This document shows positions 1,369-21,060 of a DNA stretch of 22,105 nucleotides, one piece after another. Location of the stretch: IMG/VR virus record IMGVR_UViG_2671180609_000024. The stretch is one strand, 5' to 3'. Within the stretch, counting starts at the first letter, position 1. Each line of letters begins with the position of its first letter. The position numbers and the translations under genes are program-made. The notes below the pieces were generated by a model. It searched no databases. It worked only from the letters and a program-made list of their open reading frames with translations, and had not been told where the DNA came from. The stretch comes from a virus (lineage: Duplodnaviria > Heunggongvirae > Uroviricota > Caudoviricetes).

Positions 1369-1444
1369 GCCGATATAGCTCAGTTGGTAGAGCAGCGCAT
1401 TCGTAATGCGAAGGTCGTAGGTTCGACTCCTATTATCGGCACCA
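1369..1444 (+). tRNA. thrW: tRNA-Thr (anticodon CGU), 76 nt with encoded CCA
   Basis: GCCGATATAGCTCAGTTGGTAGAGCAGCGCATTCGTAATGCGAAGGTCGTAGGTTCGACTCCTATTATCGGCACCA; cloverleaf with anticodon loop TTCGTAA; sits immediately downstream of proA as thrW does in E. coli. Confidence 0.93.
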
Positions 1445-2908: not shown

Positions 2909-3352
2909 ATGGACGAATATGTTTATAGCGCAAGGCATAATGCTTTTTTCCCTGTGGATATGATTGATAAATATAAATCAGAGGGATGGGATTTATCAGA
3001 CGCTAAGGAAGTAAATCAAAATATTATCAGTGAGTTTATGGCTGAACCGCCACAAGGAAAAATCCGTATTGCCGGAGATGATGGGCTGCCTGCGTGGGCA
3101 GATATTCCTCCACCCACGCATGAAGAGCTTATTGAAATTACTGAATCAGAAAGACAGCTACTAATTAACCAGGCCAACGAATACATGAACAGTAAGCAAT
3201 GGCCCGGTAAAGCGGCTATTGGTCGTCTGAAAGGTGACGAACTGACGCAATATAATTTGTGGCTGGATTATCTGGACGCACTGGAGCTGGTCGATACTTC
3301 CGGTGCGCCAGATATTGAATGGCCTACGCCTCCGGCAGTTCAGGCCAGATGA
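2909..3352 (+). CDS. tfa: Tail fibre assembly protein (Tfa family)
   Basis: C-terminal Tfa signature LELVDTSGAPDIEWPTPP (compare lambda Tfa VDTSTAPDIEWP). Likely start is the ATG at 2909; the listed ORF begins at an upstream GTG at 2900. Confidence 0.8.
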   Translation: MDEYVYSARHNAFFPVDMIDKYKSEGWDLSDAKEVNQNIISEFMAEPPQGKIRIAGDDGLPAWADIPPPTHEELIEITESERQLLINQANEYMNSKQWPGKAAIGRLKGDELTQYNLWLDYLDALELVDTSGAPDIEWPTPPAVQAR

Positions 3353-8355: not shown

Positions 8356-9537
8356 ATGCCTTTAAACGATATGCAGATTCGCCGCGCTAAGCCTGAAGCT
8401 AAAGCCTATACATTTGGAGATGGGCTAGGGTTGTCATTACTTATAGAACCTAATGGAAGCAAGAGTTGGCGGTTCCGCTATCGCTATGCCGGCAAACCCA
8501 AAATGATCTCGCTTGGTGTTTACCCAACGATCACCCTTGCCGATGCTCGTTCCCGTCGTGATGAAGCTCGAAAACTTGTGGCAGAAGGAAAGAACCCTAG
8601 TGAGGTTCGAAAAGAGCAAAAGCTAGCTATGCAAACAGAGTCAGAGAACGCCTTCGAAAAGATAGCCAGAGAGTGGCATCAACTTAAATCTGCTAAATGG
8701 TCGGCGGGATATGCATCAGACATCATGGAAGCGTTTAAGAACGACATTTTTCCTTATGTCGGAACAAGGCCTGTGGGAGAGATTAAACCGCTAGAGCTGC
8801 TGAACGTTCTGCGTAAAATTGAGAAACGTGGTGCGTTGGAGAAAATGCGCAAAGTGCGGCAGCGTTGCTCCGAAGTGTTTCGCTACGCAATTGCAACGGG
8901 TAGGGCGGAGTACAATCCTGCGGCTGATCTCTCCAGCGCTCTCGAAGTACACCAATCCAATCATTTCCCATTCCTAAAAGCTGATGAGATACCTGATTTT
9001 CTACGTGCCTTAGAGGGTTACTCCGGGAGTAAGCTTGTCCAGATAGCCACGAAATTACTGATGATTACGGGTGTGAGAACCATCGAATTACGCGCGGCAT
9101 TATGGCAAGAATTTGATCTGGATAACGCTATTTGGGAAATTCCTGCTGAAAGGATGAAAATGCGTAGGCCACATCTTGTGCCCTTATCATCTCAAGCGGT
9201 AGATTTACTCAATGAACTCAAGATCATGACAGGGAACTATCGTTATGTTTTTCCAGGGCGGAACGATCCGAATAGGCCAATGAGCGAAGCGAGTATAAAT
9301 CAAGCCATTAAGCGTATTGGGTATGGAGGAAAAGTCACTGGACATGGTTTTCGTCATACCCTTTCTACAATCCTGCATGAGCAAGGTTTTGAGAGTGCTT
9401 GGATTGAAATCCAGTTGGCTCATGTAGATAAAAATTCTATTAGGGGGACTTATAACCATGCTCAATATTTTAGTGGAAGGAAGTCTATGATGGACTGGTA
9501 CAGTAATTTGATATTTGAAAGACTAAAAAGGAGTTAA
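8356..9537 (+). CDS. int: P4-type tyrosine integrase (N-terminal arm-binding domain + catalytic domain)
   Basis: N-terminus MPLNDMQIRRAKPEAKAYTFGDGLGLSLLIEPNGSKSWRFRYRY is the classic P4/CP4-type integrase start; C-terminal HGFRHT ... Y catalytic motifs. Immediately follows the tRNA-derived repeat and reads away from it. Confidence 0.92.
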   Translation: MPLNDMQIRRAKPEAKAYTFGDGLGLSLLIEPNGSKSWRFRYRYAGKPKMISLGVYPTITLADARSRRDEARKLVAEGKNPSEVRKEQKLAMQTESENAFEKIAREWHQLKSAKWSAGYASDIMEAFKNDIFPYVGTRPVGEIKPLELLNVLRKIEKRGALEKMRKVRQRCSEVFRYAIATGRAEYNPAADLSSALEVHQSNHFPFLKADEIPDFLRALEGYSGSKLVQIATKLLMITGVRTIELRAALWQEFDLDNAIWEIPAERMKMRRPHLVPLSSQAVDLLNELKIMTGNYRYVFPGRNDPNRPMSEASINQAIKRIGYGGKVTGHGFRHTLSTILHEQGFESAWIEIQLAHVDKNSIRGTYNHAQYFSGRKSMMDWYSNLIFERLKRS

Positions 9538-9540
9538 TTT

Positions 9541-9957
9541 GTGTCTCAACCACTTTCGGAAATATTGACATGGGATGATGAACAATGGGAGGTATTTGTC
9601 CATGATTGGCTTATTGTCTGTAAATCAGATGATTACCCGTGGAGCGAACGTTTGGGAGGAGCTGGAGATAAAGGTAGAGACGTTGTTGGATATAAATCGG
9701 ATCCTAACGTAGAAGGTTATTCTTGGGATAATTATCAATGCAAACTGTACAAAAAAAGTTTAGGGTTCTCTGATGTTGTAGTTGAGTTTGGAAAACTTAT
9801 CTATTTTACTCTGAATGGTGATTATCCCATCCCTCAGAAGTACTTTTTTGTGGCACCCTATGATTTATCTACTACATTTTCTAATTTATTGAAAAATAAA
9901 AACGAGCTTAAAAAAGCAGTCCTTGATTCATGGGATTCAGCAATTTCAAAAAAATAA
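9541..9957 (+). CDS. Cargo gene 1: small protein with a PD-(D/E)xK (Mrr-like) nuclease motif; possibly the N-terminal part of a longer protein (see findings)
   Basis: GTG start 7 nt after SD AAGGAG and 3 nt after the int stop. Motifs GGAGDKGRDVVGY and, about 20 aa later, YQCKLYKK (D ... QxK) look like a restriction-endonuclease-like core. Very AT-rich. Confidence 0.6.
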   Translation: MSQPLSEILTWDDEQWEVFVHDWLIVCKSDDYPWSERLGGAGDKGRDVVGYKSDPNVEGYSWDNYQCKLYKKSLGFSDVVVEFGKLIYFTLNGDYPIPQKYFFVAPYDLSTTFSNLLKNKNELKKAVLDSWDSAISKK

Positions 9958-10547
9958 CTAAAAAGATTGATATTCCATTAGATGATGAAATAAAAAAATA
10001 TATTGAGGATTTTGATTTTAGTATTTTTTACTCTCTACCCTTATCATTGATTTTAAATGATATTGCAAATACACACCTTTATTTTAAGTACTTTAACGAG
10101 CTGTATGTCGTGAGAATCCCTCCAAATGAAATTCCAACATACAATTCAAAAAAAGAGTCTGTATATGTTAATGCACTGCTTCAAGCCTATTCAGAGCATG
10201 GAAATAAAACTTATAGTTCTTTCTTAGAGCTTGATGATCCATACAGACGACACTTTAATAATAGTAGAAATGATTTTTATTTTGCATCTTCGCTTGAGGT
10301 TTTTGTCCGCGAAGTATTTAAAGATGATGTATTCAAAGCATTGAAATGTTACATTTCATCTTCAATTGAACCCGTCTTTTATGAAGACCATAATTATGCA
10401 TTTATTAGGTGTAATGCAGTCTTGAAGCAGGCTGTTCTGACACCAATTGCACATTCAGTACTATCAAAAATATGTGAAGCAAATGATAAAAAAGGAATAT
10501 GCCATCATTTGGTTAATGATGGTGAAGTAATTTGGACGGTGAGATAA
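9930..10547 (+). CDS. Cargo gene 2: hypothetical protein (205 aa as listed); may be the C-terminal part of gene 1 joined by a shift in an A7 run
   Basis: ORF overlaps gene 1 by 28 nt in another frame; both frames pass through the A7 homopolymer at 9948-9954. No domain recognised by eye. Confidence 0.5.
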   Translation: MGFSNFKKITKKIDIPLDDEIKKYIEDFDFSIFYSLPLSLILNDIANTHLYFKYFNELYVVRIPPNEIPTYNSKKESVYVNALLQAYSEHGNKTYSSFLELDDPYRRHFNNSRNDFYFASSLEVFVREVFKDDVFKALKCYISSSIEPVFYEDHNYAFIRCNAVLKQAVLTPIAHSVLSKICEANDKKGICHHLVNDGEVIWTVR

Positions 10548-11005
10548 TGGTTAGAATTTATAATTCAAGTTTAGAAGTGGCATGTCGAATGGCGAAAGTG
10601 CTCGTCGCTATTTATCCTTCTTCATTAAGCCTTGAACGGCTTATTTGTTTTGATTTTATTTTAGTAAATCTTAAGGATTTTTTACCTGAAGAGATTAGTC
10701 TTCATCCTCCAATACCCCGTAGAGATGCTCAGTTAGCCCTAAAACGAGAGATTGTTTTAGAATCATTGGCTTTGTTGCAAGGCTATGAACTAGCCTCAAA
10801 AATTTATACACATCGTGGTTTTGTATATAAAGCTTCTGAAAAAACATATGCATTTACAAATTCTCTACATAATGAATATGTTGCGCAGATGGAGCATAAT
10901 ATAAATTTGGTGGTTAAGTTATATAGTGATATTCCTGATGAGCAGTTGCAATCAATTATAAAAAATAAAATTGGCAAATATGATATGGAATTTAATTATG
11001 AATGA
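10547..11005 (+). CDS. Cargo gene 3: hypothetical protein (about 152 aa)
   Basis: ATG overlaps the gene-2 stop (TAATG at 10545-10549); its stop overlaps the next gene's start. Same AT-rich composition. Confidence 0.55.
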   Translation: MVRIYNSSLEVACRMAKVLVAIYPSSLSLERLICFDFILVNLKDFLPEEISLHPPIPRRDAQLALKREIVLESLALLQGYELASKIYTHRGFVYKASEKTYAFTNSLHNEYVAQMEHNINLVVKLYSDIPDEQLQSIIKNKIGKYDMEFNYE

Positions 11006-11630
11006 CAATTTTTTTACGTTCAGAAAAATAAAGGTAACCGGATTCAATAAATTAGATGCTATAATTGAATTTGGTTCTAAATTGACTATTTTATATGGTG
11101 GTTCTGACTCTGGAAAAACATACATATATTATTTGATTCGATATTTATTAGGGAGTGAAAAACTAAAAAATAAAGATATCGATCATGCTCAAGGTTATGA
11201 TTTAGCCTATCTGGAATTTAATTTTCAAGGTAGGGTAATGACAATTGAGAGGTCTCTTCAGGATAGCGCCCATTACAGATTATATGATTCGAGCATTGAA
11301 AATGTTAGTGAAGCTAATCTGTTGATGGTTTTTTCCAAAAGTGCTTCGTCTAAAAAGAGTTTTTCATCATACTTTTATGGTAGGTTGAATTTCAAAGAGG
11401 CTAAAGTAAGAACAAACTTAAGTAATACTCTTCATAAATTTAATCTTAATAATGTTTTTGAATTTTTTTGTATTGATGAATTAAGAGTGTTAACTGAGAA
11501 GTCGTTAATTCTTTCTGATATTCCTAGCGAGGAGACAAAAAGAAAGTCTGAATTTAAATTCCTTTTAACTCAGAGAGATGATACTAACTCCTTAGCAGAA
11601 AAACCAAATAAAAAAGCAAGATATTTTTAA
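10998..11630 (+). CDS. Cargo gene 4: N-terminal head of an SMC/Rad50/RecN-like ABC ATPase (Walker A)
   Basis: FRKIKVTGFNKLDAIIEFGSKLTILYGGSDSGKTYIYYLIRYLLG is the canonical SMC-like N-terminal strand-loop-Walker A arrangement (GxxxxGKT). The ORF ends at a TAA inside a T5/A7 tract and the next ORF continues in the same frame. Confidence 0.65.
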   Translation: MNDNFFTFRKIKVTGFNKLDAIIEFGSKLTILYGGSDSGKTYIYYLIRYLLGSEKLKNKDIDHAQGYDLAYLEFNFQGRVMTIERSLQDSAHYRLYDSSIENVSEANLLMVFSKSASSKKSFSSYFYGRLNFKEAKVRTNLSNTLHKFNLNNVFEFFCIDELRVLTEKSLILSDIPSEETKRKSEFKFLLTQRDDTNSLAEKPNKKARYF

Positions 11631-11660
11631 AAAAATCAAATTGCAAATATTTATGAGGAA

Positions 11661-12817: not shown

Positions 12818-13175
12818 TACATTAAAAATATAACTGCTAATTGGGGTGCTCGAAATTATATTTCGTTTCGAGCGCTCAGTTCATTTCTAAATAATTTGCA
12901 AAATTATTTTGGGTACTTTCGCCTCTACACTTCCTTCGGGTGGTTCCACAATAATGGATCTCACCGGCGTTTGATATTTTATAATCTAACCCCTTAGCGC
13001 GCGCAGCCCCCCACGCCTGCTCGCTTCGCTTAACAGACTGGTTTTCATGCATTCCGCAAATCGTCTCAGAAGCCACCACACAAGGGCTTTCGCGTCAAAA
13101 ATGGTGCATGAGAATCATGCGTTTTCATGCGCTATAGACATGCACTCATGCGCTCTCAGGCCAGCCAGGGAAAAG

Positions 13176-13226: not shown

Positions 13227-13499
13227 TCAGACAGGAATTTGCTGACGGCTTGACAGCTTTGACGCGGAGCCATAGCGATTGAGAGTTTGCTGTTGTTTTT
13301 CCGGCATTTGTGCTTTCTCTGATTCCTGTTCATTGCGCCGGGGCTTCATGATTATCGTATCCACACTTTCCAGTGCGGTAAATGTGTAGGAACATTCAAG
13401 ATTCTGGCACTGATACCATGAGCGTTTAACCGATGGTGCTTCATAGGCGGAGGTTCTGGCGTGTGCCGTCGTACCGCATTCGGGACATTTAAGTGCCAT
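13227..13499 (-). CDS. Ogr/Delta-family zinc-finger late-gene activator (single-domain, 90 aa)
   Basis: MALKCPECGTTAHARTSAYEAPSVKRSWYQCQNLECSYTFTALESVDTIIMKP aligns by eye with P2 Ogr (CPxC..AHARTS ... QCQN.xCS.TF..ESV). Confidence 0.85.
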   Translation of the reverse strand: MALKCPECGTTAHARTSAYEAPSVKRSWYQCQNLECSYTFTALESVDTIIMKPRRNEQESEKAQMPEKQQQTLNRYGSASKLSSRQQIPV

Positions 13500-13504
13500 T
13501 AATA

Positions 13505-14056
13505 TTACTCCTGCATGCCGTTAATGTAATCCAGACGTTGCTGAAAGCGCAGTTGTTGTGCAGGGGTGTAAGAGCTCTGGCAATCACGAACCATCATGGG
13601 GTCAGGCATCACACCGGATTCATCCAGAATCATACGATAATCCCCGGCAATTTCAGGCGGTGTTATTGCCAGCTGGCGAACCAGAGCATTGCGTAATATA
13701 CGGGACGCAACGTCAACCCCTCCGCGCCCCTTCAGGAACGGAGCCAGTGCAGATGTCAGGGCTGCTCCATTCGCCTGCATAAAATTGCTGAGAGCGTCTT
13801 CTGTGCAGGCCTCCATCAGTTGATGCTGCGAGTAAATGCATTCGCGCGCAGCACAGTTAATTTGCCATTTCAGCACATCCAGATGTTCCCGCTGTAATTC
13901 GAGCTGTCGAGCATAATCTGCTGGTTTTTCCATGGCAGTGAGGAGTGATTCTATCTGTTGTTCAACGGCTTTTCGGCTCTCACTATGTCCAGCCCACAGA
14001 ATACGGGCATTTCTAAAACTGATAAGCGCTTGGTCTGGAGTGACTCGGGCCATCAT
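13505..14056 (-). CDS. psu: Psu-like polarity suppression / capsid decoration protein
   Basis: Segment LDVLKWQINCAARECIYSQHQ ... LSNFMQANGAALTSALAPFLKG ... TPAQQ resembles P4 Psu as I recall it (KWQ.N.AA ... FMQ.HG.AL..ALAP.L.G ... TPAQ). Size 183 aa against 190 aa. Confidence 0.7.
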   Translation of the reverse strand: MMARVTPDQALISFRNARILWAGHSESRKAVEQQIESLLTAMEKPADYARQLELQREHLDVLKWQINCAARECIYSQHQLMEACTEDALSNFMQANGAALTSALAPFLKGRGGVDVASRILRNALVRQLAITPPEIAGDYRMILDESGVMPDPMMVRDCQSSYTPAQQLRFQQRLDYINGMQE

Positions 14057-14805
14057 ACTGCTTTCTCCTTCTCAGCACGTTCCTGACGAACCTTCATTTT
14101 ATGCATAGCTGCTGGAGAGAGTTTATTACTGAAATCCAGACGGGCCGCATAATCCGGGGCAACTCCCGCCAGTTTAAACACGGGGTCCTGTTCGGGCATC
14201 GCATCGTTAGTCAGAGCCGGTCTGGTGATATGTTTATGAATAAAATCTTTCAGCAGTGTGTCCGGGTCATTAACTGAATGCACCACACCGACAACTGCGC
14301 TGGCTTCCCTGCCCATTGTTGATTTGAGCAGGCTTAGTGTCTGGATTAGTGCTTTTCCATGCGACTGCATAAAATCTTCCCAGATTTGTTTTGCGCGAAT
14401 ACCCACAAGGGTGTCGTGCGCGTGGATATACTTTCCGGCTAATTCCGCAGCCTCCTGCGGCAAAAGTGCATTTTCGCTTTCCTGAGCCGCCAGCAGCTCA
14501 TCAAAATCCTCAAGCGTTTCTCGTCCCAGCGCAATTTCCGTGCGCAGTTTTTTCATTTCCTTTGAGACTACGCCCTGACTTTCACGAAATAGCGTGCGCC
14601 ACTCCTCATTCAGGGCGTTCGTCGTGGCTTCCATTTCAGCGCGGCGCTGGCGGATTGTCGCAATATTATCCGCTGCCGCTTTTTGCTGACGACGTGCTTC
14701 AAGCCATGCAGATTTGGTGGCATTCACTTTCTCAAGCGCCTGTTGCGTCGAAACAGGGATAGAAATTTCAACGATCGGGTTATTGTTCTGTTCTGGGATT
14801 GTCAT
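14053..14805 (-). CDS. sid: Probable Sid-like external scaffold (capsid size determination) protein
   Basis: 250-aa alpha-helical, Ala/Glu/Gln-rich protein, first gene of the minus-strand operon and overlapping psu by 4 nt; size and position match P4 Sid (244 aa). Called by context, not by a recognised motif. Confidence 0.5.
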   Translation of the reverse strand: MTIPEQNNNPIVEISIPVSTQQALEKVNATKSAWLEARRQQKAAADNIATIRQRRAEMEATTNALNEEWRTLFRESQGVVSKEMKKLRTEIALGRETLEDFDELLAAQESENALLPQEAAELAGKYIHAHDTLVGIRAKQIWEDFMQSHGKALIQTLSLLKSTMGREASAVVGVVHSVNDPDTLLKDFIHKHITRPALTNDAMPEQDPVFKLAGVAPDYAARLDFSNKLSPAAMHKMKVRQERAEKEKAV

Positions 14806-14971
14806 GTCAGCACCTAGTGGTTTGTCGTGGTGTCAATTGTGCTGTGATGCATACAAAGCTGCCATTGAACGCCATTGTGCGAGCGACAAGACAAAGACTG
14901 AACCGCCCCGGACCTCTTTTGGCTAGCCAGAAAAGGCCTCGTTTAACTAAGGCTGTTTCAGACTTACCTTA

Positions 14972-15187
14972 ACTATTCACTACTATTCACTTAGGTAAAA
15001 AAAATAGGTAATACAGAAGGTTATAAGGTGAAGGGTTGGCATGGCAGTATTCATCGACTGTTCATAACTGTTCACATGGGAATAAAATTATTTATGGTAT
15101 TTTTTCATAATGGGTGGTTTTTTTATTCCTCGTAGCTATTTGTTTTTTGCTCCTCACCACTATTCACCCTTATTCAGGAGTATTCAA
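14972..15187. repeat. Cluster of about 8 direct iteron-like repeats, T(A/G)TTCA(C/T) (P4 type-I-iteron-like TGTTCACC variants), in the divergent intergenic region
   Basis: ACTATTCACT ACTATTCACT (tandem, 14972-14991), AGTATTCAT (15047), TGTTCAT (15059), TGTTCAC (15069), TATTCACC (15161), TATTCAG (15171), TATTCAA (15181), all in the same orientation. Confidence 0.6.
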
Positions 15188-15738
15188 CAGGCACATAAAT
15201 AGACTGCATGTTTTTGCCGGGGAATAACATTTTCGCCTCTGGCCATGGTGTTGCATTTCATACTGATTTTTATAAAACTAGATCTGTCCGGTTCTTTATG
15301 GATTCATTCGGATATATTTTACGATTTAAGGTGATGTTATTTAATATCAAGGTTTTTATGCAGGCCCAATGTTTATAAGTTGGATGCGATTCAAAAATAT
15401 GCCCGGAAATTGGGGCCTGCAATGCAAGGCCTCGTGTAGAAGTTGTACTGCCTTGCTGTATTGGCGGTGGGGTTAGCACTATCAGGTGCAATGACCCATA
15501 GGATAGTAAACCCTGGGTGAATGGTAGTTCCTATTAATGCTCCTGTATTTATAGTCCGCAGGCATGGTATTTATTATGTCATTTTATATGGTTTAATCGG
15601 GCTTTAAATTCCATAAAATCAATATGTGACGCTAAATAAAAAATGCGTGCGCAGGTGGTTTATATACACATAATAAGGAACTACCTGAACCCGGATAAAT
15701 TCATCCGGACTGTTGTGGAAATTAAAGAGGGTAGATAA

Positions 15739-15999
15739 ATGCGTAATATTTCTGTGTCTGCGCCAGCTCCTGCTGCGCCATTATTTCCTGTATCGAACCA
15801 TCATGAGCGATTTTTACGCCTGCCTGAGGTGATGCACTTATGCGGGTTGTCCCGTTCGACCGTTTACGACCTGATCAGCCGCGATGCGTTTCCGAAGCAG
15901 ATCCCGCTTGGCGGTAAAAATGTCGCCTGGGCACAGTCTGAGGTCAGCGCATGGATGGCGGACCGCATCAGCGCCCGTGGGCGGGGATGTGATGCATGA
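15739..15999 (+). CDS. AlpA/Vis-family small DNA-binding regulator (excisionase-like HTH)
   Basis: [48 protein letters not shown] matches the AlpA/Vis HTH pattern. SD AGAGGG 7 nt before the ATG. Confidence 0.8.
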
Positions 16000-16549
16000 T
16001 GATACCTGCATACATTAAATACCTTTATTCTGGCTTGCTTACTGTCGTCATTTCCAGGTATAGTTTTTCCGCTGTCGCAAAATCGGCAGCCGGAATTGGC
16101 GTTCCGTATAACTTATTGGCGACAATTGACGCCCCTTGCGTCTTTTTTTACGTCGTAGCTCAGGCACAACCATTTTCAGGGCTGTGGTGTTTATGCTTAC
16201 ACCATGGTTCTATCGAGATAATGGTAGTCCGGGCGGGGCAGCCTTCGGGCTGGCCGGTTTCCAATAAGGCCGGTTACGCCAACCCCGTTCGGGCTGCCAC
16301 CAGTGAAATTGGCGTTTCCGGTGGTAGCAATAACCGCTACTTATTGGAGGCTGCCATCATGGCTACAATCCTCACCCCGTCACACCCGCAATATGTCTTT
16401 GTGTTTGCCGCAATCCGCCGTGCTGACACTCACCCCCGCATCTGTATGCTTCGCACTGTCTCCTGCGATGAGCGTTCCGCGCGCCGTTTGCTAGTCCGAG
16501 ATTATGTACTCTCCCTTTCTGCACGGCTGCCTGCCGGGGAGGTGACGCT

Positions 16550-16771
16550 ATGAACCAGTTTGAGATTTCCTACGACGATGTTGTAAGGCTGAAACATTTA
16601 CGCAATGTGGGTGAGTATGTAACTGGCATGGCAGCCCTGCAGGACTGTTATGAAAAGCCAGCAGGTGCCCAATGCGAACAACTGGTTTCCCTCATTTATC
16701 TGATGACAGAGCAACTGGATGGAGTGGTGCAACGCTGCCATGACGACCTGATGAATGCGGAGGTGGCCTGA
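16550..16771 (+). CDS. Hypothetical small protein of the P4-like early operon (73 aa)
   Basis: SD GGGAGGTGA 4 nt before the ATG; ATGA-type overlap with the next ORF; same operon as alpha. Function unknown (positional analogue of P4 epsilon/orf151). Confidence 0.55.
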
Positions 16772-17094
16772 TGATATGCTGTGAATCTCTTCTGGCACTT
16801 CGTGCCGCTCTGTATCGCCGTGCCGTTGCCTGTGCCTGGCTGGCTCTAAGCAATCATCAGGAACGTTATTCCGGCCTGACGCTCGCTGAACTTGAAGATG
16901 CCATAGCCCGCGAGCTGGAAGGGTTCTATCTGCGCCAGCATGGGCAGCAAAGAGGGCTGGAAATTGCCTGCGCGTTGCTTTCGGATCTGATGGAGTCGGG
17001 GCCGCTTAAAGCCTGTCCGGTTCTCTCACTGCTCGGAATGACGGTCATGGATGAACTTTGTTCCCGTCACCTCAACAAACCAGCGCTGCACTAA
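16771..17094 (+). CDS. Hypothetical protein of the P4-like early operon (107 aa)
   Basis: SD GGAGGTGG upstream; start overlaps the previous stop; ends 13 nt before the alpha start. Confidence 0.55.
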
Positions 17095-17107
17095 GGAGGG
17101 CCGCACA

Positions 17108-19441
17108 ATGTCAGGAATGAAAGTTAGCCAGGCTGAGAAAGCAGCTCGGGGTCACTGGTCAAGAATTTTACCTGCGCTGGGCGTAAATGTACTGAAAAAT
17201 CGGCACCAGCCCTGCCCGGTCTGTGCCGGGAAAGACCGCTTTCGATTTGATGACCAGGAAGGGCGGGGAACGTGGTTCTGTAACCAGTGCGGGGCAGGTG
17301 ATGGCCTGGCGCTTGTAAGTAAAGTACTGGATGTAGGCATTAGTGAAGCGGCAGACAGAATAAACGGCATTATCGGAAACCTGCTGCCAGTATCTCAGGG
17401 AATGCTTGAATCTGGTTCTCCTGAAAAAGAGGACGGGAGAAAAGCTGCAGCAGTGCTGGCTGCCCGTTTGTTTGATAAGTCCCGCCAGACCACTGGCAAT
17501 GCCTATCTGACGAGTAAAGGGTTTCCTGCACTGCCTTGCCGGGAATTAACCGCTATGCATAAAGTCGGTGGTGTGGCATTTCGCGCGGGAGATCTTGTCG
17601 TTCCATTGTATGCAGATGGAGAGCTGGTAAATCTGCAGTTAATCAACGCTAATGGGGGCAAATGCTTCCTTAAAGGCGGTCAGGTTAAGAATGCCTTTTA
17701 CCTGGTTGAAGGTACTGCCAAAGCAGCCAAACGGCTCTGGATAGCGGAAGGATATGCCACCGCACTTACTATCAACTATCTGACTGGCGATGCTGTCATG
17801 GTGGCCTTTTCGTCCGTCAATTTCCTTTCCCTGGCGAGCATTGCCTGCAGTGAGTACCCAACGCACCAGATAATTATTGCTGCTGACCGCGATCTCAACG
17901 GTGCGGGGCAAACAAGGGGCGCAGCTGTTACCGGGGCCTGCAATTGCACAATGGCGCTCCCGCCTGTGTTTGGTGACTGGAACGATGCATTCACGCAAAA
18001 CGGCGAAGAAGCCACCCGGCATGCAATTCATGAAGTAATAAAACCAGCTGTTGCCAGCCCCTTCGACACAATGAGCGAAGCTGAATTTACCGCGCTGAGC
18101 GTCAGCGAAAAAGCGCAGAGGGTAGTGGATCACTATAAAAATTCACTGGCAGTAGACCCGAACGGGCAGCTCCTTTCACGCTATGAGGCGGGGGCCTGGA
18201 AAGTTATCTATTACGCCGATTTTGCCCGTGATGTCGCTGCGCTGTTTCAGCGCCTCGACGCACCTTTTTCATCCGCGAAAATTGCGTCTCTCGTGGAAAC
18301 CCTCAAACTGATCGTTCCGCAACAGCAGAATCCGGCGCGGCAACTTATCGGATTTCGCAACGGTGTGCTCGATACCCGGACAGGATTGTTCAGCCCGCAC
18401 GATAAGAAGCACTGGTTACGTACGCTGTGCGAGGTGGATTACACGCAGCCCGTTGACGGTGAGTCACTGGAAACCCATGCCCCGGCATTCTGGCGCTGGC
18501 TGGATCGTGCCGCAGGTTTTAATCCTGAAAAACGGGACATTATTCTGGCTGCATTGTTTATGGTGCTGGCTAACCGTTATGACTGGCAGCTGTTTCTGGA
18601 GGTCACTGGCCCTGGCGGAAGTGGAAAGAGTATTCTTGCTGAAATAGCAACCATGCTGGCGGGTGAAGATAACGCGACCTCGGCAACCATTGAAATGCTT
18701 GAGTCGCCAAGAGAACGAGCTGCGTTAATAGGTTTTTCACTGATTCGACTTCCCGACCAGGAAAAGTGGAGCGGTGACGGGGCCGGACTAAAAGCCATCA
18801 CTGGCGGCGATGCGGTATCCGTTGATCCCAAATATCAGAACGCCTATTCAACCCACATCCCGGCGGTCATCCTGGCTGTGAACAATAATCCGATGCGCTT
18901 CACTGATCGTAGTGGTGGAGTTTCACGCCGAAGGGTGATCCTGCATTTCCCCGACCAGATAGCCCCGGAGGAACGCGATACCCAGCTCAAAGAGAAAATT
19001 GCCAGTGAGCTAGCGGTGATTGTTCGCCAGCTTATGCAGCGTTTCAGCGACCCAATGAGTGCCAGGACATTGCTTCAGTCACAGCAGAACTCCGATGAAG
19101 CGCTCACCATCAAACGTGATGCTGATTCAGCTTTTGATTTTTGCGGCTACCTTGAGGTCCTACCTGACACCACGGGCATGTTTATGGGGAACGCTAATAT
19201 TGTTCCACGTCAGCCTCGAACTTACCTCTACCATGCCTATCTGGTCTACATGGAGGCTAACGGCTATAAAAATACGCTCAGTCTGACCATGTTTGGCAAG
19301 GGGCTACCGTTAATGCTCAAGGAATATGGGCTGCAGTATGAGAAACGACGGACCAATCAAGGAATGCAGACTAATCTGGCCCTAAGAGAGGAAAGCAATG
19401 CTGACTGGTTGCCAAAATGCGATGAGTTTGCAGCGAAATAA
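17108..19441 (+). CDS. P4 alpha-like bifunctional primase-helicase (777 aa)
   Basis: SD AAGGAGGG before the ATG at 17108. N-terminal zinc-binding primase motif CPVCAGKDRFRFDD...GTWFCNQCGAGDG; central P-loop EVTGPGGSGKSIL (D5-type helicase Walker A). Length equals that of P4 alpha (777 aa). The listed ORF starts 19 codons upstream. Confidence 0.9.
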   Translation: MSGMKVSQAEKAARGHWSRILPALGVNVLKNRHQPCPVCAGKDRFRFDDQEGRGTWFCNQCGAGDGLALVSKVLDVGISEAADRINGIIGNLLPVSQGMLESGSPEKEDGRKAAAVLAARLFDKSRQTTGNAYLTSKGFPALPCRELTAMHKVGGVAFRAGDLVVPLYADGELVNLQLINANGGKCFLKGGQVKNAFYLVEGTAKAAKRLWIAEGYATALTINYLTGDAVMVAFSSVNFLSLASIACSEYPTHQIIIAADRDLNGAGQTRGAAVTGACNCTMALPPVFGDWNDAFTQNGEEATRHAIHEVIKPAVASPFDTMSEAEFTALSVSEKAQRVVDHYKNSLAVDPNGQLLSRYEAGAWKVIYYADFARDVAALFQRLDAPFSSAKIASLVETLKLIVPQQQNPARQLIGFRNGVLDTRTGLFSPHDKKHWLRTLCEVDYTQPVDGESLETHAPAFWRWLDRAAGFNPEKRDIILAALFMVLANRYDWQLFLEVTGPGGSGKSILAEIATMLAGEDNATSATIEMLESPRERAALIGFSLIRLPDQEKWSGDGAGLKAITGGDAVSVDPKYQNAYSTHIPAVILAVNNNPMRFTDRSGGVSRRRVILHFPDQIAPEERDTQLKEKIASELAVIVRQLMQRFSDPMSARTLLQSQQNSDEALTIKRDADSAFDFCGYLEVLPDTTGMFMGNANIVPRQPRTYLYHAYLVYMEANGYKNTLSLTMFGKGLPLMLKEYGLQYEKRRTNQGMQTNLALREESNADWLPKCDEFAAK

Positions 19442-20829: not shown

Positions 20830-20921
20830 GGTGAACAGTAAAGTGTTCACTTCTTATCAATCGTTAATTTCATATCTTTTTGAATATTAATGAAAAAAAA
20901 CACAATGAGTAGTATGAACAG
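20830..20921. repeat. Inverted pair of P4 type-I-iteron-like octamers (GGTGAACA gtaaag TGTTCACT) plus a further inverted copy (ATGAACAG)
   Basis: GGTGAACAGTAAAGTGTTCACT at 20830-20851 (GGTGAACA is the reverse complement of TGTTCACC); ATGAACAG at 20914-20921. Confidence 0.5.
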
Positions 20922-21060
20922 TTTTCCCCCAAAAAAAGTTTTTTCTGCCTTGAGAATGCGCGGAAAGCGAACGCCTTCACCAATGTGTATAGGGGTGTGT
21001 GTAGTTTAAATCTTCTATTTTAATTTATGTATTAAAATCATTGTGTTGGTGGCGATTATT

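Follow-up and report, generated by a model that had tools for sequence, protein, structure and literature searches.

A probable two-dyad late promoter resembling P4 Psid upstream of the sid operon in a P4-like satellite prophage of Escherichia coli O157:H7

Which of the TGT-N12-ACA dyads upstream of the sid operon are sites for an Ogr/Delta-type activator? The preliminary description had proposed two such dyads as activator sites. It called the first, about 42 bp from the sid start codon, awkward for a site at -55, and noted that the second overlaps an array of iterons. Both dyads are present exactly as claimed in the window, the whole stretch of 22,105 nucleotides that was analysed: TGTGCTGTGATGCATACA at 14838-14855 and TGTTCATAACTGTTCACA at 15059-15076. 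The sid ATG is at 14805, 41.5 bp away from the centre of the first, and the second does fall within the repeat array. A third exact dyad, TGTGCGAGCGACAAGACA at 14876-14893, had been missed. The awkward distance is resolved because the first dyad is best read as the proximal site of a pair, with the missed dyad as the -55 site. The region 14828-14893 on the minus strand is very probably the orthologue of the P4 promoter Psid, driving sid-psu-delta with two Ogr/Delta sites, and the second of the dyads noted earlier consists of iterons.

The window is E. coli O157:H7 DNA with a P4-like satellite prophage; positions 14700-15750 share 100% identity with E. coli O157:H7 chromosomes. A tRNA-Thr (CGT) gene (1369-1444, plus strand) is located at the window's left, followed by lambdoid prophage remnants and then by the P4-like element. 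The plus strand of the element encodes an integrase (8357-9538), accessory genes, an AlpA-type regulator (15739-15999), an Ash/Icd-like ORF (15996-16553), a DUF5375 ORF and an alpha-type primase-helicase, the alpha homologue (17051-19441). Between the integrase and the delta end, 9931-11631 (plus strand) codes for ABC-three-component system proteins and an AAA ATPase according to the RefSeq annotation. This interval is a known defence hotspot in P4-like satellites (PMC13586616). Inside the Icd-like/Ash ORF, Rfam models matched isrK at 16071-16148 (plus strand, 71.9 bits) and C4 antisense RNA at 16217-16304 (plus strand, 84 bits). This stretch is likely the RNA-based immunity region of the satellite, and the two matches put the coding extent of the ORF in question.

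The late operon is encoded on the minus strand. Its first gene is a sid homologue (14053-14805, minus strand) coding for 250 aa, with a weak match to the Psu family in Pfam. The protein shares 24% identity with P4 Sid over the full length, and the gene is positioned as in P4. A psu homologue (13505-14056, minus strand, 183 aa; Pfam Psu, E = 4.8e-42) and a delta/ogr-type activator gene (13227-13499, minus strand, 90 aa; Pfam Ogr_Delta, E = 1e-16) complete a contiguous group in the order sid-psu-delta, with delta as the last gene. This order is present in about 20% of P4-like elements (PMC8628076). The translation of 13227-13499 contains one zinc finger with the exact pattern CX2CX22CX4C (C5-C8-C31-C36). 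It shares 41% identity with the N-terminal half of P4 Delta, and 49% with P2 Ogr. The element thus encodes its own Ogr/Delta-like protein, as had been stated before. A terminator-like hairpin with a T-run is located at 13106-13120 on the minus strand, about 107 bp past the delta stop codon; it is plausibly the end of the sid-psu-delta operon.

Upstream of sid, the distal dyad (site I, 14876-14893, minus strand) and the proximal dyad (site II, 14838-14855, minus strand) both match TGT-N12-ACA exactly. The centre of site I at 14884.5 and that of site II at 14846.5 are separated by 38 bp, and the sid ATG lies 79.5 bp downstream of the former and 41.5 bp downstream of the latter. The predicted -10 hexamer, CACAAT (14836-14841, minus strand), overlaps the ACA arm of site II. 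It agrees with TATAAT at four of six positions, among them the key A2 and T6. By eye, only two of six positions agree with TTGACA in the hexamer located 17 bp upstream of CACAAT, and a sigma-70 two-hexamer consensus scan gave no promoter at the position of the sid promoter. As read from the sequence, the sid promoter has a recognisable -10 and no usable -35. We infer a transcription start for sid-psu-delta at 14828-14831 (minus strand), 7 +/- 1 nt past the -10 and 55 bp from the centre of site I, so that the leader would be about 25 nt long. Counted from about 14829, 7 nt past the predicted -10, site I falls at -55, the predicted Ogr/Delta position, and site II at -17/-18. The -55 and -18 assignments are thus predictions from the putative -10 and from the likeness to P4 and P2. 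The start offset equals that of P4 and of P2 PO in an alignment on the annotated P2 transcription start site (TSS).

Other readings of these elements were considered and rejected. An alternative sid start codon is not available, as no other in-frame ATG precedes residue 57, and relatives use the same start. A CRP/FNR-type site (TGTGA-N6-TCACA, equivalent to TGT-N10-ACA) does not fit a spacing of N12 in every Sid class and inner bases that are not conserved. The dyads could also have been -55 sites of divergent rightward promoters in the style of P2 PP/PO; there is no -10 at the needed distance and no rightward gene before alpA.

The closest known counterpart is P4 (NC_001609). Exactly two dyads precede its sid gene, one at 9493-9510 and the other at 9531-9548. 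The distance between their centres (9501.5 and 9539.5) is 38 bp, as in the window, and the distances to the sid ATG are 81.5 and 43.5 bp, compared to 79.5 and 41.5 bp in the window. The two upstream regions align in register, whereas the interiors and flanks of the dyads are unrelated in sequence. Both promoters have CACAATT after the proximal dyad and no -35, both drive an operon that includes the activator gene, and both border an iteron origin. Differences concern the gene order, which is sid-delta-psu in P4, and the size of Delta: the P4 activator is a tandem protein of 166 aa, the 90-aa protein of the window a single domain. As a diverged orthologue of the known P4 Psid, the sid promoter is an ordinary further copy of a known promoter type.

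The P2 record (NC_001895, L130) provides annotated starts for comparison. The distance from the annotated TSS to the centre of the activator site is 55-58 bp. In an alignment on these TSSs, site I occupies the positions of the P2 PO site, and so does the distal dyad of P4. P2 PP/PO, PV and PF each have one annotated activator site, without a -18 site. None of the annotated P2 sites (3057-3087, 10239-10266 and 17555-17583) is an exact TGT-N12-ACA: the sites of PO/PP and PF are TGT-N12-CCA, and that of PV is TGT-N11-ACA. P2 has five exact matches, all of them outside its annotated activator sites. Because the annotated sites of P2 are inexact, an exact match to the motif cannot be taken as necessary or as sufficient. 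The exact textbook consensus is found only in the satellite promoters.

Conservation was studied with loci gathered by Sid protein similarity, independent of the DNA motif. Protein-anchored loci were used because DNA-level divergence from P4 is too great: a blastn search of phage records with the intergenic region yielded no hits. The dyad offsets were anchored on the start of the tblastn match of Sid. Seven loci came from species-representative genomes of Shigella, Enterobacter, Citrobacter, Pseudocitrobacter and Pantoea. IMG/VR contributed 30 loci with a window-type Sid and about 76 with a P4-type Sid, and 21 further loci from two more distant Sid classes raised the total to 134, of which 113 were retrieved without use of the DNA pattern. 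The 38-bp dyad pair was present beside the sid start in all of them (134/134). Many of these loci are near-identical, and the independent support amounts to about seven sequence classes. An alignment of 12 diverged Sid-anchored sequences from -160 to +3 has few invariant blocks besides the ATG: TGT and ACA of site I, and TTGT...CACAATT of site II, along with a few single columns scattered over the alignment. No class departs from CACAATT. The twelve inner bases of the dyads differ between Sid classes.

This pattern of conservation bears on the role of the proximal dyad. It could be that only the distal dyad at 14876-14893 is an activator site and that 14838-14855 is conserved as part of the core promoter, serving as -10 and spacer. 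The ACA arm of site II is inside the invariant CACAAT, and the overlap of its right arm with the -10 hexamer means that the conservation of site II could partly reflect the -10. P2 late promoters work with one annotated activator site, and site II of P4 Psid is reportedly dispensable for activation. The left arm is not accommodated by this reading: TTGT is located about 24-27 bp upstream of the start, outside the sigma-70 elements, and is invariant in all classes. The spacing of N12 is kept exactly while the 12 inner bases vary freely. In the L002 class, the two dyads are identical to each other at 15 of 18 positions, which suggests the same protein at both sites. P4 Delta reportedly footprints the -55 position in all P2/P4 late promoters and is said to footprint a second site, at -18, in P4 promoters. 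The two-site geometry of the sequence agrees with these footprints, and the one on the -18 site speaks against a purely core-promoter role. A promoter with the distal site only is, in our assessment, improbable.

The two-site promoter is therefore the preferred reading. Conservation argues for selection on site II because its left arm, outside any core element, is invariant. The earlier proposal of Ogr/Delta sites for the sid operon stands for its first dyad, with the proximal -18 position in place of the -55 role, and not for its second. We infer the following order of events from the arrangement of sites and genes. The sid promoter would be silent without activator. Site I would be occupied by Ogr supplied by a P2-type helper, or by the 90-aa Delta of the element itself, and the bound activator would recruit RNA polymerase to the sid promoter. 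With delta at the end of the operon, activation would feed back positively. A second activator molecule at site II, overlapping the -10, may tune the output. This provides a concrete and testable promoter model for the late operon of an O157:H7 satellite prophage. The understanding of how P4-type late promoters work is unchanged by these results.

The architecture was also used as a query. A scan of IMG/VR for the bare pattern TGT-N12-ACA-N19-TTGT-N11-CACAATT yielded at least 80 loci. In 77 of the 80 matches listed, CACAATT is followed at 27-31 nt by the start of an ORF of 120 aa or more; in 75 of the 80 this ORF is a Sid homologue with 39-100% identity to the Sid of the window or of P4. Two matches appear to be natural sid-loss variants. 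IMGVR_UViG_3300048919_000469 (L172) has a 184-aa Psu-like ORF directly after the two-dyad promoter and no intact sid; L209 has a truncated ORF of 124 aa without significant match. Three AT-rich IMG/VR contigs (L156, L178 and L236) contain the two-dyad pattern without a downstream Sid-like ORF and are probably chance matches. The false-positive rate of the two-dyad pattern is, as a rough estimate, 3 in 80 among the matches listed. The pattern TGT-N12-ACA, N19, TTGT-N11-CACAATT with the sid ATG about 30 nt downstream is of modest use for the annotation of P4-like satellites, since the loci recovered with the bare pattern are almost all Sid operons.

The second dyad of the preliminary description lies in the putative replication origin. 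A P4-type origin iteron array at 14972-15187 (plus strand) consists of about eight direct ACT(A/G)TTCA(C/T) units in three clusters. The units are spaced by 10-11 bp, and the adjoining stretch has about 29% G+C. Five of the eight exact ACTRTTCAY matches of the 22-kb window are located in this array, and one inverted unit is present at 15517-15525. The dyad at 15059-15076 (plus strand) is composed of two adjacent iterons, ACTGTTCAT at 15057 and ACTGTTCAC at 15067. Together these neighbouring units, TGTTCAtaacTGTTCAca, spell TGT-N12-ACA by virtue of their 10-bp spacing. The iterons are conserved among close relatives; in the relative L013, the ACA of the dyad is changed to ATA and the iteron is kept. 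Distant Sid classes have iterons of the same types ahead of their sid promoter, and a dyad at the position equivalent to 15059-15076 was not found in the other Sid classes compared. Measured from its centre, the dyad is 262.5 bp away from the sid ATG and about 670 bp away from alpA. The match is most likely incidental to an origin iteron pair and not part of the sid promoter.

The array resembles the P4 origin in several respects. In P4, type-1 repeats TGTTCACC are located between sid and orf88/vis, and the window array lies in the same sid-alpA interval. Both have clustered TGTTCA(C/T) units with a spacing of 10-11 bp beside an AT-rich stretch, and an alpha-type primase-helicase is encoded nearby. 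Most units of the window are ACTATTCAC and not TGTTCACC, and the P4 iterons do not spell TGT-N12-ACA, whereas the window pair does. The type-1 iterons of the P4 origin are bound by the alpha protein, and presumably the alpha primase-helicase binds the iterons of the window. Another group of P4-type iterons is located about 1.4 kb beyond the alpha stop codon, with an inverted pair at 20831-20850 (GGTGAACAGT and AGTGTTCAC) and further units at 20905-20922. The cluster 20831-20922 may be the equivalent of P4 crr.

The iteron structure also speaks against an arrangement in which both noted dyads are sites of the -55 type, the first for sid and the second for a late promoter in the origin region or as a site shared by alpha and Delta that couples replication to late transcription. 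Both dyads are exact motif matches, a rightward CATAAT hexamer is present at 15106-15111 downstream of the second dyad, and a two-hexamer scan gave weak rightward candidates at 15061-15098. A -55 site centred at 14846.5 would, however, place the start near 14791, inside the sid ORF, which has no other start codon before residue 57. The CATAAT hexamer would put the centre of the second dyad at about -51 and not at -55, and the nearest rightward gene, alpA, is about 670 bp from this centre. The second dyad is broken in L013 and missing at the equivalent position in other classes, and two iterons spaced by 10 bp fully account for its TGT and ACA. Two -55 sites are thus very unlikely, and a role of the second dyad as an activator site is not supported.

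The motif has only six specified bases, and its overall frequency in the window is not enriched: six exact matches were found and 5.5 expected. Three of the six lie within 14838-15076; the other three are inside ORFs. Of 3000 dinucleotide shuffles of the window, 20 had three matches within 239 bp and 6 had a pair exactly 38 bp apart. That all dyads are chance matches to a low-information motif, as the window-wide count and the matches within ORFs could suggest, has next to no probability for the sid pair in view of its rarity in the shuffles, its P4-identical spacing and position, its presence at 134/134 Sid loci and its invariant TGT and ACA with varying interiors. For 15059-15076, a chance match by way of the iteron sequence is the preferred reading.

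A further conserved element is located upstream of the Psid-like promoter. The 24-bp near-perfect palindrome CCTCTTTTGGCTAGCCAGAAAAGG at 14913-14936 is single-copy in the window. Most Sid classes have a version of CCTTTyCTGGCTAGCCAGrAAAGG, centred at about -79 and some 25 bp upstream of the -55 site. Compared with the intact palindrome of the window, that of P4 is degenerate and that of the L002 class differs; none was found in P2. In the window, a 15-bp insertion relative to the close relatives L012-L015, GACTGAACCGCCCCG at 14896-14910, separates the palindrome from site I. The insertion moves the centre of the palindrome in the O157:H7 copy from about -79 to about -95, corresponding to about 1.4 helical turns. 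A function as intrinsic terminator was rejected, as neither strand has a T-run; the sole terminator-like match nearby is weak (14953-14936, minus strand). The palindrome could be the site of a further regulator. We know of no described regulator for a palindrome upstream of the -55 site. There is some chance, if a small one, that the invariance of the -18 site and the conserved palindrome lie outside the textbook model with a single -55 site. In that case, the conservation of the -18 site in all Sid-encoding elements studied, left arm beyond the -10 included, would argue that it is needed for function, although in P4 it reportedly proved dispensable for activation.

At the other end of the interval, the region 15625-15708 upstream of alpA is homologous to the core and leader of P4 PLL. 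It includes a -10, CATAAT, at 15669-15674 and a leader hairpin, CCGGATAAATTCATCCGG, at 15691-15708, which compares with P4 9060-9077. A search for a PLL-type Delta site upstream of alpA gave only a degenerate and shifted remnant, TGTGACGCTAAATAAAAA, in which ACA is changed to AAA. The remnant is 5 bp closer to the -10 than the dyad in P4, and its TGT is lost in relatives. From this degenerate, shifted dyad it follows that the early-left operon of this lineage may no longer be responsive to Ogr/Delta.
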